Shown one piece after another: positions 197-7,079 of a stretch of 7,457 nt of DNA. Below the pieces are notes generated by a model that saw only the letters and a list, made by a program, of their open reading frames with translations, was not told the origin of the DNA and searched no databases. The stretch comes from a virus (lineage: Duplodnaviria > Heunggongvirae > Uroviricota > Caudoviricetes). The position numbers and the translations under genes are program-made. The stretch covers positions 1 to 7,457 of IMG/VR virus record IMGVR_UViG_2737471865_000004. The stretch is one strand, 5' to 3'. The stretch's first letter is position 1. Every line of letters starts with the position of its first letter.

Positions 197-3100
197 CTGA
201 GTCAGCCGAGAAGAATTTCCCCGCTTATTCGCACCTTCCCTAATAATACAACCATTAACGGAGGAAGACAGACAATTCATGACGGGGGCATTTCCACCGG
301 TACGATAATCGACAGTGGCAATCAGGACGTTTATACAGGTGGTATCAGCAATGGAACGACAATTAAGGGTGGTAATTCACACATAAGTGGGGGGACTGCG
401 AATGGAACCATCATTGATGGTGGAGGGCAGACAGTAACAACTCAGGGGCATGTTGATGGTACAACGATAAATAAGTCCGGTTATCAGGACATCACGCAAG
501 GAAGTATTGCAACGAACACAATCATAAATGGTGGACGACAGTATGTTGAACAGAGCACAGTAGGAACAACCACCATTAAAAATGGCGGTGAGCAAAGAGT
601 ATATGAAAGCCATGCGCTGGACACGACGATTGAAGGTGGAACTCAGTCTCTGAATAATAAGTCAACGGCAAAAAATACTCAGATCTATTCTGGTGGTACG
701 CAAATTGTTGATTACACCAGCTCCTCGGATGTTATTGAAGTTTATTCCGGTGGCGTGCTTGATGTTAGTGGTGGTACGGCAACAAATGTTACCCAGCACG
801 ATGGTGCAATTTTAAAAACAAACACTAACGGTACGACGGTGAGCGGTACGAATAGTGAAGGTGCATTCTCCATCCACAATCACGTGGCAGACAATGTGTT
901 GCTGGAAAACGGTGGTCATTTAGACATAAACGCATATGGTTCGGCAAACAAGACGATTATTAAAGATAAAGGAACAATGTCAGTTTTAACGAATGCTAAA
1001 GCTGATGCGACCCGAATAGATAACGGCGGGGTAATGGATGTTACCGGAAACGCGACCAATACCATAATCAATGGTGGTACACAGAATATTAATAATCATG
1101 GTATTGCCACGGGTACCAATATCAACGGCGGAACGCAAAATATCAAGAGCGGCGGGAAAGCTGACACGACAATTATATCCTCCGGGAGCCGGCAGGTTGT
1201 TGAGAAAGATGGTACGGCAACTGGCAGCAATATTAGCGCCGGAGGCTCGCTGATTGTCTATACCGGTGGTATTGCACATGGGGTTAACCAGGAGACGGGC
1301 AGTGCTTTAGTTGCCAACACGGGCGCAGGGACTGATATTGAAGGATACAACAAGCTCTCTCACTTCACTATTACCGGAGGGGAGGCTAATTATGTTGTGC
1401 TGGAAAATACCGGCGAACTGACGGTAGTGGCTAAAACCTCGGCGAAAAATACTACCGTTGATGCTGGCGGTAAGCTGATTGTCCAGAAGGAGGCTAAAAC
1501 AGATACCACCAGACTTAATAATGGTGGCGTTCTGGAGGTTCAGGACGGTGGTGAGGCTAAGCATGTTGAGCAACAATCCGGCGGCGCATTAATTGCTTCC
1601 ACAACTTCCGGAACCCTTATCGAAGGAATCAACAGTTATGGTGATGCTTTCTACATCAGGAATTCAGAAGCTAAAAATGTAGTGCTGGAAAACGCTGGCT
1701 CATTAACAGTCGTCACTGGTTCCCGGGCAGTTGATACGATTATTAATGCCAACGGCAAAATGGATGTTTATGGAAAAGATGTTGGCACTGTACTCAATAG
1801 TGCTGGCACCCAAACAATATATGCCAGTGCCACTTCTGATAAAGCAAATATCAAAGGTGGCAAGCAAACGGTATATGGATTAGCCACTGAGGCAAATATC
1901 GAAAGTGGTGAACAAATTGTTGATGGTGGGTCAACAGAGAAAACACACATCAATGGTGGCACGCAAACCGTTCAGAATTATGGTAAGGCAATCAATACCG
2001 ATATCGTCTCTGGCCTACAACAAATTATGGCAAACGGGACAGCGGAAGGTTCCATTATTAATGGGTGTTCACAGGTAGTTAATGAGGGCGGTCTGGCTGA
2101 AAACTCGGTGCTTAATGACGGCGGCACACTCGATGTGCGGGAGAAAGGCAGCGCAACGGGGATACAGCAGAGTAGCCAGGACGCTTTGGTTGCAACCACC
2201 AGGGCGACGCGGGTCACAGGAACACGCGCGGATGGCGTCGCGTTCAGCATCGAGCAGGGTGCGGCGAACAATATCCTGCTGGCAAATGGCGGCGTGTTAA
2301 CCATGGAGTCAGACACCTCTTCTGACAAAACACAGGTCAATACGGGCGGACGGGAGATCGTCAAAACAAAAGCCACTGCGACAGGCACGACGCTCACCGG
2401 CGGCGAACAAATCGTCGAGGGGGTGGCGAATGAGACAACGATTAACGACGGCGGAATACAAACAGTTTCAGCTAACGGAGAGGCAATAAAAACAAAGATC
2501 AATGAAGGCGGTACGCTGACAGTTAACGATAATGGCAAAGCGACAGATATCGTCCAGAACAGCGGTGCCGCTCTCCAGACGAGCACGGCTAACGGTATTG
2601 AAATCAGCGGTACTCACCAGTACGGCACTTTTTCCATTTCCGGCAATTTAGCGACCAATATGTTGCTGGAAAATGGCGGTAATTTATTGGTATTAGCAGG
2701 TACCGAAGCTCGCGACTCCACGGTTGGCAGCGGTGGAGCCGCCAACGGCAGTTATCGCAGCAACGGGCTGGGCGGTCACATTGAAACCGGGATGCGATTT
2801 ACCGATGGTAACTGGAACCTGACGCCGTATGCATCGTTAACGGGGGTTCACCGCTGATAACCCTGAATATCATTTATCCAATGGCATGGAATCGAAATCA
2901 GTCGATACCCGCAGTTTATATCGTGAACTGGGTGCAACGCTGAGTTACAACATGCGTCTGGGGAACGGTATGGAAGTTGAGCCGTGGCTGAAGGCGGCTG
3001 TGCGCAAAGAATTTGTCGATGATAACCGGGTGAAAGTGAATAGTGACGGTAATTTCGTCAATGATTTGTCGGGCAGACGTGGAATATACCAGGCAGGTAT

Positions 3101-3212
3101 TAAAGCCTCATTCAGCAGTACGTTAAGCGGGCATCTTGGGGTGGGGTATAGCCATGGTGCCGGTGTGGAATCCCCGTGGAACGGGGTAGCTGGTGTGAAC
3201 TGGTCGTTCTGA
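197..3212 (+). pseudogene. ypjA: Type Va (AIDA-I/Ag43-like) autotransporter adhesin remnant, ypjA-like; 5'-truncated and frameshifted
   Basis: One frame is open from 197 (just after an in-frame TGA at 194-196) to TGA at 2855-2857, with no in-frame ATG or signal peptide; the track ORF 755-2857 begins at an internal GTG. Translation is Gly/Thr/Asn-rich with recurring ...T-I-I-N-G-G-T-Q... units typical of AIDA-type passenger repeats. ORF 2886-3212 in another frame ends ...GVNWSF, a typical beta-barrel C-terminus; that frame is open back to 2841, so the frame switch lies at about 2841-2857. Symbol is by synteny only: an autotransporter 3' end ~160 bp from the ssrA-derived att core, as I recall for ypjA next to CP4-57 in E. 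coli K-12. Confidence 0.75.
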
Positions 3213-3372: not shown

Positions 3373-3417
3373 TGGTGGAGCTGGCGGGAGTTGAACCCGC
3401 GTCCGAAATTCCTACAT
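3373..3417 (-). other. ssrA: 3'-terminal ~45 nt of ssrA (tmRNA) including the CCA end: prophage attachment-site core at the prophage/chromosome junction
   Basis: Minus strand reads ...ATGTAGGAATTTCGGACGCGGGTTCAACTCCCGCCAGCTCCACCA, which matches the 3' end of E. coli tmRNA as I recall it. The match stops at 3417/3418 and nothing upstream resembles the rest of ssrA, so this is a fragment or att core, not a gene. Confidence 0.7.
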
Positions 3418-3533
3418 ACCATTTTGACTATAATAAAAACATATATTTATGTTTTAAAACAGTACGTTAGTGTTATTTTGTTTTTGTCGGTTTTACACAT
3501 TTTTAATGCTCTGCCGCCAAGTTGTCGCCATTG

Positions 3534-4517
3534 CTAATTCCTATCAGCAGGTAGAATTGCTGGGTAGAGCTTAGAGCAATCATTGCCATAGTCAGGGATA
3601 AAGTCCCATAGCCCTTTTGGCGTTTGGAAGACCTCAGGGCTTAAGCCAATCAGCATATAAACATGAACTAACAGCTCGCGCAATCCAGTGACCATTTGCT
3701 TTATTTGTTTTTCATCAGAGAAAGAAGTGGTGAAGGGTTTTTCTTCAATGGAGTCAAAAAGAATAAACTCATGTTTTTCATATCGATAGTCGATCCCTAA
3801 TTCTCTGCAAAGTTGGATAATATTGATTTCGAGCATTTGAAGGGAAATCACTTGGATATCATAAGAAGTCTCTTTGTTGTAACAGCTTTTAATAGCTTTG
3901 TTGATATTCTTATAATAATCTTGAACTCTACCCATAAATAATGAACTTATTTCTTTGCTATAGCCTTCTTCAATAGAGGATTTTGTAAAAATATTCATGT
4001 AAAGAATATAAGGGTGAGAAATGGAAAGTTCTATATATTTTTTTCCATCATCGTGTTCGGTAAACTCTCTACTAACGATAAATGAAGGGACGGTTTTAAA
4101 AATATCGGCATAACTCTTCTGGTGGGCATAAAATGAATCAGATTTATTTTTTGCTTTTACCAGCTCTATTTGATGCTCTGTCCTTGAAAGCTGCGTCTCT
4201 GTTTGAATGGTCCTGTGAATATTCTTAACTATAGCTCCAAGAGGTACTGAACTGGCTAGCAGCATTAGAGGGAATTTACTGATTTCGTAAAAGCGAGTAT
4301 AGCCGTGGGCACTTAACACCGGGACCTTGCCCCACCATGCGAAAATCCCAAAATAAAAGAATGATAATACTGGTATTCCGATTGATAACCAGAATAATTT
4401 CTGTTTTATAAGGTTTTGTTCATTTAATAAATACCACTTGTATTTATATGTTAAATACAATATGTATATTAACATTACAACATAGAACATAATGCCAATT
4501 GATGAATAGAGGGTCAT
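3534..4517 (-). CDS. Hypothetical membrane-anchored protein, 327 aa (two N-terminal hydrophobic helices plus ~265-aa C-terminal domain); AT-rich prophage cargo gene of unknown function
   Basis: Uninterrupted 327-codon ORF. Its ATG (4517-4515) overlaps the int stop codon (ATGA overlap). Hydrophobic segments at roughly residues 7-24 and 41-62. Hand-counted GC of sampled 60-nt stretches is ~23-28% versus ~48% in int. No catalytic motif I can recognise. Confidence 0.7.
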   Translation of the reverse strand: MTLYSSIGIMFYVVMLIYILYLTYKYKWYLLNEQNLIKQKLFWLSIGIPVLSFFYFGIFAWWGKVPVLSAHGYTRFYEISKFPLMLLASSVPLGAIVKNIHRTIQTETQLSRTEHQIELVKAKNKSDSFYAHQKSYADIFKTVPSFIVSREFTEHDDGKKYIELSISHPYILYMNIFTKSSIEEGYSKEISSLFMGRVQDYYKNINKAIKSCYNKETSYDIQVISLQMLEINIIQLCRELGIDYRYEKHEFILFDSIEEKPFTTSFSDEKQIKQMVTGLRELLVHVYMLIGLSPEVFQTPKGLWDFIPDYGNDCSKLYPAILPADRN

Positions 4518-5541
4518 GCTTTTTTCCAGTCTAATTTGTAAAGTGGATTTTTTGTTACAGCATCTTCCAAGTGATCAGGGGCAAAGTGAGCGTAAACCAT
4601 CGTCATTTTTATATCAGCATGGCCCAGAATATCGCGCAGTACCAGTATATTTCCGCCGTTCATCATAAAATGGCTGGCGAATGTATGGCGCAGTACGTGG
4701 GTGCACTGGCCCTCTGGCAGTTCGATACCGGCTCGCTTTACTGCACGCTCAAAGGATTTTCTGCATGGGGTAAATAATCTCCCCCTGTTTTTAGGTAGTT
4801 CGTCATACAGTTCTTGAGATATTGGAACGGTTCGGTTTTTTTTACCTTTGGTCTTGGTATAAGTAATGCGATATTTTGATAACTGATGCCCTTGCAGGTT
4901 TTCTGCTTCACTCCATCGGGCACCAGTTGCTAGGCATATTTTTGCAATCATCAACAGACTGGGACTCTGAGAATCAGCACAGGCATCCAGTAGGCGTTTA
5001 ATTTCTTCCGGGGTCAGGAATGCTAGTTCACCCTCAGCGATTTTAAATGTTGGCAGCCCGACGAGAGGATTTGGTGCTGACCAGTGGCCTAGTTTTTTCA
5101 ATGTGCCGAAAACCGATGATAGGTACGTTGCTCAAGATTCACCGTGCGTGGTTTTACTGGCGACATTAGTGTGCCGTCTTCGTTACGAAGGTCACCTTTT
5201 AACCGTGCTTCGCGGTATTTCGTAAAGTCTCCGGCTGTCAGTTCTGAGGCGATGGGGTCGCCTAGACCATTACAGATAATTCTAAGTTTCGCCATGAGGC
5301 GCTTGGGGTCTGCGAGTGTCTGACCATACAGGGAATACCAAAGCTCAATTAACTCTGATAGGCGTCGCCGATCATCCTTTTCACCCAACCACGGTTTTTT
5401 ATTCACTTCTTCCATTGTGAAGCTTTCAAACGCAATGGCTTCGCCTTTCGTGGCAAATTGCTTACGCACGCGCTTGCCATTGCGTCCATTGGGATAGCAC
5501 TCACACAACCATTTTCCGTTCGGCTGTTTTCTGATGGTCAT
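4514..5541 (-). pseudogene. int: Tyrosine recombinase / integrase of the P2/186 family, split by a frameshift (N-terminal part 5098-5541, C-terminal part 4514-5101)
   Basis: N-terminal ORF begins MTIRKQPNGKWLCECYPNGRNGKRVRKQF... and C-terminal ORF carries ...LATGARWSEAE..., ...HVLRHTFASHFMMNGGNILVLRDILGHADIKMTMVYAHFAP..., which recall the P2 Int catalytic region. The C-terminal frame is open only from 5131 downward after a stop at 5132-5134, and homology resumes there (…ATYLSSVFGTLKKLGHW), so a single indel at about 5123-5135 separates the halves. Combined length ~340 aa. Confidence 0.85.
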
Positions 5542-5542
5542 A

Positions 5543-6175
5543 TCAAAGGCTCTTAATGATTTTCAGTGCGCGGCCTACTACCTCAATGTCATCCAGGCCG
5601 CACTCAAACGATGAATCATCCTGATGCACTACTAATTTGTTTCCCGGGAGTCGAGTCAATTTAACAATGCTTTTTATCCCGTCGATATCGACTAACCACA
5701 TACCATTTACTAGTGGTGTTTGGTTGCGATCTATTAAATAAGAATCACCAGAAGTAGTCACCAGCAGTAGGTTGCTTGAGTTTGAGGGGAGTATGCTGCT
5801 ATCAATGATTGCTTTTCCAGCATCGATCAATAAACCACCGTTGAGAGTCGCCTTGTCAATTTCAGGAGATACTAGTTCAGAAAGAGGTATAACCTTGCTG
5901 GAGTTCACGGAATTGATATTTTTTTTGGGTTCAATGTTTGAACCTGGCTCCCCCTGTCCGGTGGTTAGCCACAGTAAAGAAACTCCTGTTTCCAAGGCGC
6001 ACTGAATCACCCACTCTGCAGGAAAACTATCTCTTAAGTATCTGTTTGCCATGGTACTTTTTGATGCGCCTAAGTGATCGCAAAGTTGCTGTCTGGACTT
6101 GAAATCATAGGCTGCCATTAGTCTATGGATAGCCTCTCTTCCCCCTGTATTCTCTCCAGCCTTTACCTGTATCAT
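5543..6175 (-). CDS. cI: CI-type lysogeny repressor (N-terminal HTH domain); occupies the 186 cI / P2 C position immediately upstream of int
   Basis: 210-codon ORF whose stop lies 1 nt before the int start, implying a cI-int operon. N-terminal region (...SRQQLCDHLGASKSTMANRYLRD...) looks like an HTH. AGGA sits about 6 nt upstream of the first ATG; an internal Met 19 codons in would give 191 aa. Confidence 0.65.
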   Translation of the reverse strand: MIQVKAGENTGGREAIHRLMAAYDFKSRQQLCDHLGASKSTMANRYLRDSFPAEWVIQCALETGVSLLWLTTGQGEPGSNIEPKKNINSVNSSKVIPLSELVSPEIDKATLNGGLLIDAGKAIIDSSILPSNSSNLLLVTTSGDSYLIDRNQTPLVNGMWLVDIDGIKSIVKLTRLPGNKLVVHQDDSSFECGLDDIEVVGRALKIIKSL

Positions 6176-6192
6176 TTTTTAATCCTGTTGGC

Positions 6193-6239
6193 GTATCAAA
6201 TATTGGATCGTAGTATCTCGATGTATCAAATATTGAATC
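6193..6239. promoter_or_regulatory. Two direct copies of a 17-bp operator-like element (GTATCAAATATTGGATC / GTATCAAATATTGAATC) in the repressor-Cox/Apl intergenic switch region
   Basis: Copies at 6193-6209 and 6223-6239 are 16/17 identical with starts 30 bp apart; each contains the palindromic core AATATT, and a third GTATC half-site sits at 6213-6217. They lie between divergent regulatory genes where operators are expected. Promoter -35/-10 elements could not be assigned with confidence. Confidence 0.35.
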
Positions 6240-6294
6240 AAGTAAAACGAGATAAAACGACGTAAACCAAACCTTAATCGGGAGATACTGCACT

Positions 6295-6537
6295 ATGAGC
6301 ACTGATATTTCAATTCGTGTACCAAAAGAGATGGCTACGCCTGCAGAGTTCGCGGAATGGGAAGGTATCTCCCGCGGCTCCGTGTATCAAAAAATTCACC
6401 ATGGTCAGCTTGCTAAATACATGGTCAAGAAAGAAAAAAACAAAGGCCGCGTAAGCCTGCGTTATTTAATGTACAAAACCGATCAGGTCCGTGAATCCCT
6501 CGGTCATTCCAACTTCCGCGTCATTGTTGGTAAGTAA
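6295..6537 (+). CDS. Small HTH regulator, Cox/Apl-like (excisionase / lytic-switch protein), 80 aa
   Basis: First rightward gene of the switch, in the same position as 186 apl / P2 cox. The segment ...TPAEFAEWEGISRGSVYQKIHHGQL... resembles the HTH region of P2 Cox as I recall it. Confidence 0.5.
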   Translation: MSTDISIRVPKEMATPAEFAEWEGISRGSVYQKIHHGQLAKYMVKKEKNKGRVSLRYLMYKTDQVRESLGHSNFRVIVGK

Positions 6538-6569
6538 GTTCAATTATGAGAACTTTCTAAGGGGGTAGC

Positions 6570-7079
6570 ATGTTTGATTATAAGATTTCCAAACACCCGC
6601 ATTTTGATGAAGCCTGTAGAGCTTTTGCACTTCGTCACAATATGGCGAAGCTGGCAGAACGTGCAGGAATGAATGTCCAGACTTTGCGAAACAAACTCAA
6701 CCCAGATCAACCGCATCAGCTAAATGCGCCAGAAATCTGGCTGCTTACCGATCTGACTGAAGATTCAACGCTGATAGATGGTTTTCTGGCACAGATTCAC
6801 TGCCTGCCATGTGTACCGATTAATGAGGTAGCAAAAGAGAAACTGCCGCATTACGTCATGAGTGCAACCGCAGAGATCGGGCGTGTTGCTGCAGGTGCGG
6901 TATCTGGAGATGTAAAAACCAGTGCAGGTCGTCGTGATGCTATCAGCAGCATTAACTCTGTAACACGACTGATGGCGCTGGCTGCTGTTTCATTGCAGGC
7001 CCGTTTACAGGCTAACCCTGCGATGGTGAGTGCAGTTGATACCGTGACTGGCCTCGGTGCTTCATTCGGTTTGCTGTGA
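6570..7079 (+). CDS. cII: CII-like lysogeny-establishment transcriptional activator (phage 186 CII family), 169 aa
   Basis: Strong RBS AAGGGGG about 4 nt before the ATG. Same position (second rightward gene) and same length as 186 CII as I recall; N-terminal HTH-like segment ...NMAKLAERAGMNVQTLRNKLNP... Confidence 0.65.
   Translation: MFDYKISKHPHFDEACRAFALRHNMAKLAERAGMNVQTLRNKLNPDQPHQLNAPEIWLLTDLTEDSTLIDGFLAQIHCLPCVPINEVAKEKLPHYVMSATAEIGRVAAGAVSGDVKTSAGRRDAISSINSVTRLMALAAVSLQARLQANPAMVSAVDTVTGLGASFGLL

Follow-up and report, generated by a model that had tools for sequence, protein, structure and literature searches.

The 119-bp spacer at positions 6176-6294 of the 7,457-bp stretch of DNA analysed here (the window) is, with high probability, the pR/pL control region of a 186-type prophage (Fels-2/SopEΦ/SEN8-like) integrated at ssrA in E. 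coli, and the two near-identical 17-mers contained in the spacer are most probably dyad operators for the CI repressor encoded next to them. This reading draws on sequence features, conservation among relatives, co-variation with the N-terminal domain of CI and positional homology to phage 186.

The spacer is bounded on the left by the start codon of cI (CAT at 6173-6175, minus strand) and on the right by the ATG of apl at 6295. The cI gene (5543-6175, minus strand) encodes a repressor of 210 aa, consisting of a helix-turn-helix N-terminal domain and a C-terminal oligomerisation domain of the 186 type. Pfam matches were limited to PF07022 (Phage_CI_repr; E=5e-31, 107 bits) and PF16452 (Phage_CI_C; E=4e-28, 98 bits); the Peptidase_S24 C-terminal domain of the lambda-type, LexA-like self-cleaving repressors is absent. 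The protein is 33% identical to 186 CI across 193 aa and matches the 186 CI structures in the PDB (2FJR, E=3e-28; 2FKD, E=2e-14). The apl gene (6295-6537, plus strand) encodes a Cox-like excisionase/repressor of 80 aa, which is 30% identical to 186 Apl (E=4e-13) and falls in PHROG 575 and 6912 (excisionase), and cII (6570-7079, plus strand) encodes a lysogeny establishment activator of 169 aa (PF06892, E=1e-43; 70% identity to 186 CII). An integrase gene is located to the left of cI, and a Fil family protein is annotated in a near-identical prophage of E. coli 33-6. The Pfam matches and the identities to 186 proteins bear out the lysis-lysogeny switch proposed in the preliminary description, in the form of a 186-type module of cI, Apl/Cox-like gene and cII.

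By reading the sequence we assigned a copy of the 3' end of ssrA at ~3374-3420, which we take to be the ssrA-derived attL core. This copy was called by neither ARAGORN nor Rfam, and the window gave no Rfam matches and no tRNA or tmRNA calls. Fels-2 and SopEΦ are known to integrate at ssrA (PMC3448106). The closest phage records are Klebsiella prophage-derived records (91%), Salmonella phage SEN8 (86%), Yersinia phage MLG42 and SopEΦ (80%), and Fels-2 (79%). Gene content, the ssrA copy and these records together show, at the level of sequence, that a 186-type prophage resembling Fels-2 and SopEΦ has its left end within the window. The switch region was matched in 224 of 5426 complete E. coli genomes, at identities of up to 99.9%, and the same prophage class is represented in phages of Salmonella, Klebsiella, Citrobacter and Yersinia, including the SopE-converting SopEΦ. 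Genes of the prophage family include one for a DNA adenine methylase.

The two 17-mers, termed O1 (GTATCAAATATTGGATC, arranged as GTATCAA-ATA-TTGGATC; 6193-6209) and O2 (GTATCAAATATTGAATC, GTATCAA-ATA-TTGAATC; 6223-6239), are identical at 16 of 17 positions and their starts are 30 bp apart, as had been described and as both inspection of the sequence and a repeat finder confirmed. The repeat is real and beyond chance: the best pair of 17-mers reached 16/17 in none of 3000 dinucleotide-preserving shuffles of the spacer, and 15 in two of them. The two 17-mers are themselves imperfect inverted repeats of the form 7-3-7, with the core TCAA-N3-TTGA/G and, in each, a symmetry axis that passes through a single base (6201 in O1, 6231 in O2). 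The arms match at 4/7 positions in O1 and at 5/7 in O2, where they read GTATCAA and GATTCAA when viewed as a dyad. The palindromic AATATT core noted earlier does exist, but natural variation (see below) and the perfect palindrome at 5928-5944 place the axis on the odd-centred positions 6201/6231 and not on the even-centred AATATT. Similarly, the GTATC at 6213-6217, previously listed as a third half-site, is present, but is better read as part of the predicted pR -10 element, TAGTAT(C), at 6211-6216. The pentamer GTATC is locally in excess, with seven copies in 220 bp compared to ~0.3 expected. O1 ends in GATC, a tetranucleotide that is lacking from O2 and from the candidate distal operator FL described below.

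Switch regions in which the N-terminal domain of CI is at least 92% identical to that of the window were drawn from phage records, genomes (one for each species) and IMG/VR contigs. The resulting 90 regions represent 54 unique sequences, all equal in length and in register. The sole common polymorphism in O1 is the centre base, 6201, which is either A or T. In O2, TCAA (6226-6229) and TTGAATC (6233-6239) are nearly invariant, and the 3-bp centre between them takes six forms (ATA, TTA, ATG, CTA, TAA and CTT); the outer three bases of the left arm are variable, as are the flanks at 6219-6225 and 6240-6242. As far as sequence variation can tell, this pattern characterises an odd-centred 7-3-7 dyad operator, and neither a direct-repeat operator nor an even AATATT axis.

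We think it very unlikely, then, that the 17-mers form a P2-type operator, in which direct repeats would be bound head-to-tail and the dyad would not be used, as by P2 C at Pe. The identical orientation of the two copies, their 16/17 identity and the imperfect internal symmetry would suit such an arrangement, and the operators of P2, P2 Hy dis and WΦ are direct repeats (PMC1904268). However, the repressor encoded in the window is a 210-aa 186-type CI with a Phage_CI_C domain and not P2 C, the variation is symmetric around one centre base with TCAA and TTGA kept on either side, the same-type site at 5928-5944 is a perfect palindrome, and the corresponding slot in phage Cartapus holds a near-perfect one. 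What the preliminary description saw as a direct-repeat arrangement is better described as two inverted-repeat operators in the same orientation, equal in size to the 17-bp operators of 186 (PMC3675496).

The 90 relatives include many that are close kin (CI 90-100% identical), which makes conservation by itself weak evidence. This kinship speaks for a reading in which the 17-mers are a neutral local duplication or an AT-rich promoter spacer, conserved by recent common descent and without a role as operators. We nevertheless consider this reading highly improbable. The substitutions are unevenly distributed, with flanks and dyad centres varying and the TCAA/TTGA cores not; in an FL-like position, at a distance of 265-295 bp, the core is found again within a perfect palindrome; and in other classes of cI the slot has been swapped as a unit together with the N-terminal domain of the repressor (see below). 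Within the 35-kb genome of SEN8, the core TCAA-N3-TTG[AG] occurs in five places only, three of which are FL, O1 and O2. The repeats are also present in related functional phages, SEN8 and MLG42, which are isolated, plaque-forming or annotated complete phages and carry both O1 and O2.

Comparison across cI classes, using an alignment of nine phages plus further loci, was informative about which protein the 17-mers follow. Cartapus, Fels-2 and ST15phi14.1 encode Apl proteins that are 100%, 100% and 99% identical to that of the window, with CI N-terminal domains that are 64%, 74% and 71% identical, respectively; none of them has the 17-mers of the window, and their O1 and O2 slots hold unrelated sequence. 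In Cartapus the O1 slot is occupied by a near-perfect 17-bp dyad, AATCTTGAATCAAGATC, with the same centre column. Conversely, MLG42 (Apl 69%, CI N-terminal domain 100% identical) has retained O1 and O2, the latter with intact arms, and SopEΦ (Apl 68%, CI N-terminal domain 97%) has retained O1 and the right arm of O2, its O2 slot (AGTTCCA-TTA-TTGAATC) being divergent in the left arm and core. SEN8, MLG42 and SopEΦ, with CI N-terminal domains 97-100% identical to that of the window, all contain O1 and the FL core. Both the 17 bp separating the pR hexamers and the stretch immediately downstream are entirely different from one cI class to the next. Because of this double dissociation (the same Apl with other slots, and a diverged Apl with the 17-mers kept), we assign the 17-mers to CI, with whose DNA-binding domain they co-vary in the sequences compared, the left arm of O2 in SopEΦ excepted. 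Conservation in relatives and co-variation with the N-terminal domain of CI both support the earlier view that the 17-mers are operator-like.

To the alternative that the 17-mers are binding sites for the Cox-like protein Apl, and not for CI, we give almost no credence. Apl/Cox proteins do bind between the face-to-face promoters of P2-like phages (PMC7498355), and the 17-mers adjoin apl. Against this, the 17-mers are missing from the three phages with 99-100% identical Apl and are kept, fully in MLG42 and as O1 plus the right arm of O2 in SopEΦ, where Apl has diverged; moreover, 6-bp direct repeats of the Apl type have places of their own, at 6243-6268 and near attL. Within CI, the stretch SKSTMANRxLRD probably forms the recognition helix. 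It is almost identical among repressors with completely different operators, which is a point against the reading of the 17-mers as CI operators.

The predicted early lytic promoter pR consists of a -35 hexamer TTGGCG (6188-6193, plus strand), which is TTGACG or TTGACA in almost all relatives, and, 17 bp from it, a -10 hexamer TAGTAT (6211-6216, plus strand). The -10 is invariant within the same cI class and reads TAATAT, TAATTT or TAATGT in other classes. The scaffold TTGAC[G/A]-17-TA[G/A]TAT is common to all cI classes, and the variable 17-mer lies exactly in its spacer. Relative to predicted pR, O1 would fill the space between the -35 and -10 elements (approximately -30 to -14) and O2 would lie over the start site (approximately +1 to +17). 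The lysogenic promoter for cI-int, pL, is predicted on the minus strand at 6285-6313, with the -35 hexamer TTGAAA (6313-6308), a 17-bp spacer and the -10 hexamer CAGTAT (6290-6285). In the annotated pL of 186, the -10 is located 5-10 bp upstream and the -35 13-18 bp downstream of the apl ATG, and the hexamers in the window occupy identical offsets. The pL block, GAGATACTGCACTATGAG...TTTCAATTCG, is almost invariant through all cI classes. As predicted, pR and pL are face to face with start sites ~55 bp apart; in P2-like phages, face-to-face promoters are separated by 40-60 bp (PMC7498355). The suggestion that the leftward promoter may reach into the Cox/Apl-like gene fits with predicted pL, which has its -35 (6308-6313) within apl and its -10 (6285-6290) just upstream of the ATG.

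The assignments of pR and pL draw on conservation and positional homology; each predicted promoter matches the consensus at 8 of 12 positions, and a generic promoter scan reported neither. The sole match of that scan was TTGATA-17-AATGAT on the minus strand (6199 to 6171). Its start would fall inside cI, downstream of the ATG, and we rejected it as a chance match inside O1. Although the preliminary description could not place -35 and -10 elements, conservation across all cI classes allows both to be placed as predictions.

The GATC directly before the pR -10 is kept in all cI classes. Given also that the family encodes a DNA adenine methylase, the 17-mers could be imagined to be bound by a host factor, or to act in a manner dependent on Dam methylation, instead of being bound by CI. 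We regard this as extremely improbable. O2 and FL do not contain GATC, the GATC is the only part of the 17-mer that is independent of class, with the remainder changing together with cI, and any effect of Dam could overlie control by CI rather than replace it.

A candidate for the distal operator FL, GGTTCAA-TGT-TTGAACC, is located at 5928-5944, 265 and 295 bp to the left of the O1 and O2 centres, respectively. It is a perfect 7-3-7 palindrome and falls within the codons of the CI linker; in 186, FL is inside cI, ~300 bp from pR (PMC3675496; 186 annotation). With a matrix constructed from O1 and O2 only, the candidate is the third-best site in the window, at a borderline score that was reached anywhere in the window in 11 of 200 shuffles, and its homologue in SEN8 is not among the top matches of the same matrix. 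Most of the 90 relatives retain the core TCAA-N3-TTG[A/G] despite a changing linker peptide (PGSNIEPK, PGSNIDHK, PGPNIEPK, PGTKIDDK and others), but as the site is within coding sequence its conservation is confounded with that of the peptide. In other cI classes the core is not found at this position; Cartapus has a perfect 7-3-7 palindrome of its own 25 bp from the FL position. By sequence criteria, 5928-5944 is a probable FL-like distal operator.

Just after the apl stop codon, at 6537-6553, there is an FR-like element, AGTTCAA-TTA-TGAGAAC, which aligns with 186 FR and contains the predicted pE -10 (CATAAT, minus strand, 6549-6544). It is the same in every cI class and hence provides no class-specific support; it also scores poorly with a matrix of O1, O2 and FL. 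The matrix scan found no FR of the O1/O2 type, nor any other O1/O2-type site in the window above chance. A possible third operator at pR, 6169-6185 (GTATCATTTTTTAATCC, 13/17 identical to O2), was rejected: it scores 7.8, less than the 8.4 median of the shuffle maxima, relatives do not keep its core constant, and its position coincides with the cI start codon and ribosome-binding site. We also discarded the pB (ogr) promoter as independent support. The sequence GTTCTCAATATTGA(T/A)AT upstream of ogr hardly differs between group-A prophages, Fels-2, ST15phi14.1 and Cartapus, and because these represent different cI classes the pB region is uninformative about the CI class.

Between O2 and pL, the plus strand contains three direct repeats with a spacing of 10 bp (TAAAAC at 6243, TAAAAC at 6253 and TAAACC at 6263; 6243-6268). 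They hardly vary among relatives, and the classes with identical Apl have similar repeats. On the attL side, the minus strand at 3471-3496 reads GTAAAAC-N4-AAAAAC-N4-TAACAC, beside the ssrA-derived attL core. 186 Apl binds 6-bp direct repeats 10-11 bp apart, both at pR-pL and at att (PMC7498355), and, judging from their sequence and position, the three repeats at 6243-6268 are probably Apl sites of this prophage. A 10-nt perfect inverted repeat that could pair the apl ribosome-binding site (6279-6288) with apl codons (6365-6374) is a doubtful candidate for an RNA structure: relatives include one possible compensatory pair, but in 29 sequences the pairing is broken.

Two features bear on the state of the copy in the window. 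The integrase ORF is split by a 1-nt deletion relative to the otherwise identical prophage of E. coli 33-6, with cI intact, and the window alone among the 90 same-class sequences has a G at 6191, position 4 of the pR -35. If these changes are not sequencing errors, the window may contain an immobilised prophage that still confers immunity.

By homology to 186, we infer CI binding, promoter activity, looping and transcriptional interference for this switch as follows. CI dimers bound to O1, in the spacer between the pR -35 and -10 elements, and to O2, at the start site, would exclude RNA polymerase from pR, and the shut-off of pR would silence apl-cII-fil and the downstream early lytic genes. 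The weaker promoter pL, which overlaps the start of apl, would fire towards pR from a distance of ~55 bp. Because pL is convergent and this close, the shut-off of pR should also relieve transcriptional interference on pL, so that the cI-int transcript would be sustained, as in 186. The FL dyad would probably loop to the pR sites via a CI multimer and thereby add cooperativity. During induction, Apl bound to the TAAAAC repeats would repress both promoters. Occlusion by CI, relief of interference, looping and repression by Apl are all established for 186 (PMC3675496, PMC7498355). By analogy, and on the basis of 33% identity and the Pfam match in the C-terminal domain, the CI multimer may be a heptamer of dimers that wraps and loops DNA as in 186.

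The similarity to the 186 switch extends to the gene order (int-cI / apl-cII-fil), the two Pfam domains of CI, the conserved cII and pE region, the predicted face-to-face arrangement of pR and pL and their offsets from the start codons of cI and apl, 17-bp dyads over pR, a distal dyad inside cI (265-295 bp away in the window), and phased direct repeats between the promoters and near att. There are also clear differences. 186 attaches at a tRNA-Ile gene, compared to ssrA here, and the CI and Apl proteins are 33% and 30% identical. The spacer DNA, when aligned with 186, showed no useful similarity except around the apl ATG. The FL, FR and pB sequences of 186 (ATTCAC-N5-GTGAAT) differ from its pR sites, whereas the FL candidate in the window is of the same type as O1 and O2. 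The 17-bp operators of 186 comprise three sites at pR, spaced by two helical turns, and the distal FL (PMC3675496); the window has two strong sites at pR with centres at 6201 and 6231, 30 bp or ~2.9 turns apart, a spacing that does not fit the two-turn phasing of pR operators on the 14-mer wheel proposed for 186.

This spacing is within the known repertoire of the 186 family, because the two 17-bp CI sites annotated at 186 pB, one on either side of the -10, are 32 bp apart and a three-turn FL/FL' pair has been suggested for 186 (PMC3675496). At pB, too, one site lies over the -35 and spacer and the other over the start, although pB is the promoter of the late-activator gene B and has another recognition sequence, compared to an early lytic promoter in the window. 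The expectation of a different operator geometry was thus correct with respect to 186 pR, and the geometry found resembles that of 186 pB. There is some chance, albeit a small one, that the CI class of the window runs a structurally different 186 switch, with two operators three turns apart, an FL of the same type in a longer inter-domain linker and no FR of the same type. If so, this would imply a CI oligomer or a DNA path unlike the two-turn-phased 14-mer wheel. On this view, and given the nearly identical SKSTMANRxLRD stretch, operator specificity in the CI family may be determined elsewhere than in the canonical recognition helix, and the surplus copies of GTATC might mark weak wrapping contacts.

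Among the closer relatives, the felsduoviruses SEN8, MLG42 and SopEΦ share integration at ssrA (PMC3448106) as well as O1 and the FL core, whereas Fels-2 belongs to another operator class, with a CI N-terminal domain that is 74% identical and a different O1 slot. The P2 switch, from the same family (Peduoviridae), also has face-to-face early and lysogenic promoters and a Cox-like protein. It differs in that C is a short repressor acting on direct repeats (PMC1904268, PMC1904263), compared to a two-domain CI, dyads and cII in the window.

CI immunity classes have been little studied (PMC3448106), and in the searchable literature we came across no experiments that map the operators of Fels-2, SopEΦ, SEN8 or MLG42. 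The predicted operator set belongs to an uncharacterised immunity class of a well-understood switch, and not a new kind of system. It provides a testable map for one immunity class of 186/Fels-2-type prophages, comprising the dyad GTATCAA-N3-TTGRATC, predicted pR and pL, a candidate FL and candidate Apl sites. In the phages compared, the N-terminal domain of cI and the operators are swapped together as a single cassette, while the promoter scaffold and Apl stay constant, and these prophages would constitute a natural set suited to studying the evolution of immunity specificity in the 186-type switch.

The CI repressor of the window was compared with those of L006, L007 and the Cartapus phage (L008). 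The stretch SKSTMANRxLRDSFPAEWVIQCALETG (CI residues about 38-64, window 5984-6064) is near-identical among CI proteins with unrelated operators, varying at a single residue that is Y, M, V or N. The differences between these proteins lie mostly within residues 1-37.

The predicted -35 hexamer of pR, the rightward promoter of the switch, reads TTGGCG in the window alone (the deviating position is 6191); the 89 other switch regions of the same cI class carry TTGACG (87) or TTGATG (2). The prophage may be decaying, with this substitution weakening the promoter. Comparison of the window with L002-L009 and L016-L028 showed that a GATC directly 5' of the predicted pR -10 (window 6205-6210) is kept in every cI class, whereas the remainder of the operator slot differs. 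A DNA adenine methylase is among the genes of this family of phages, and Dam-dependent modulation of pR is possible.

The pentamer GTATC occurs seven times in 220 bp around the switch (window 6169-6388), where about 0.3 copies are expected; the whole window contains 20 copies against an expectation of 11. The predicted -10 regions of the two facing promoters, pR and pL, have the sequence AGTATCTC in common, and both lie among the GTATC copies. These copies could be weak contact points for CI, like those proposed over pL in phage 186, or they could be a coincidence. The start of apl features a perfect 10-nt inverted repeat, CGGGAGATAC (6279-6288) and GTATCTCCCG (6365-6374), through which the apl ribosome-binding site could pair with apl codons 76 nt downstream. 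Among relatives there is one possibly compensatory variant, CGAGAG / CTCTCG, and the pairing is broken in 29 sequences.

A 1-nt deletion at about 5124 divides the integrase gene of the window (4514-5541) into ORFs 5541-5098 and 5101-4514. The deletion shows in comparison with the intact int (342 aa) of E. coli strain 33-6 and of other complete genomes, which is otherwise the same. Either the frameshift is real and inactivates the gene, or it is a sequencing error. Beyond int, a minus-strand copy of the ssrA (tmRNA) 3' end (window 3374-3420), which neither ARAGORN nor Rfam detected, marks attL. An AT-rich stretch (window 3440-3500) adjoins this copy; its minus strand carries the phased repeats GTAAAAC, AAAAAC and TAACAC, which are similar to the TAAAAC repeats of the switch. 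Between attL and int, and overlapping the int stop, is a minus-strand ORF of 327 aa (3534-4517) with no Pfam or PADLOC match; its sole match is PHROG 17460, of unknown function. The same position holds a RES-domain gene in Cartapus and orf69 in 186, and thus looks like a cargo-gene slot. Upstream of the prophage, a plus-strand gene for an AIDA-type autotransporter adhesin (755-3212) is apparently interrupted, with the AIDA repeats in 755-2857 and the autotransporter beta-domain end in a separate ORF, 2886-3212.

In the SEN8 phage (L109), GTATCAAGCGTTGAAGC at 10461-10477 within a tail gene has an operator-like score with the matrix built on the predicted operators O1 and O2, a score reached in 1 of 200 shuffles; it is either a distal CI site or a chance match. 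Sequences resembling 17-bp dyads, GTTCTCA-ATA followed by TTGATAT or TTGAATT, and also GTATCAT-N4-ATGATTC, lie 5' of the ogr/B-like late activator gene (L010, 25627-25667; SEN8, 25465-25510; L111, 380-420, minus strand; L115, 62-105). They occupy positions matching the CI sites at pB of 186, yet are unchanged between different cI classes. Finally, Cartapus contains a perfect 7-3-7 palindrome, GTTCTCA-TTA-TGAGAAC, within the linker codons of cI (about 852-868), 25 bp away from the position of the FL-like palindrome inside cI of the window (5928-5944). This suggests that members of this repressor family share, as a conserved design feature, a dyad in the linker codons.
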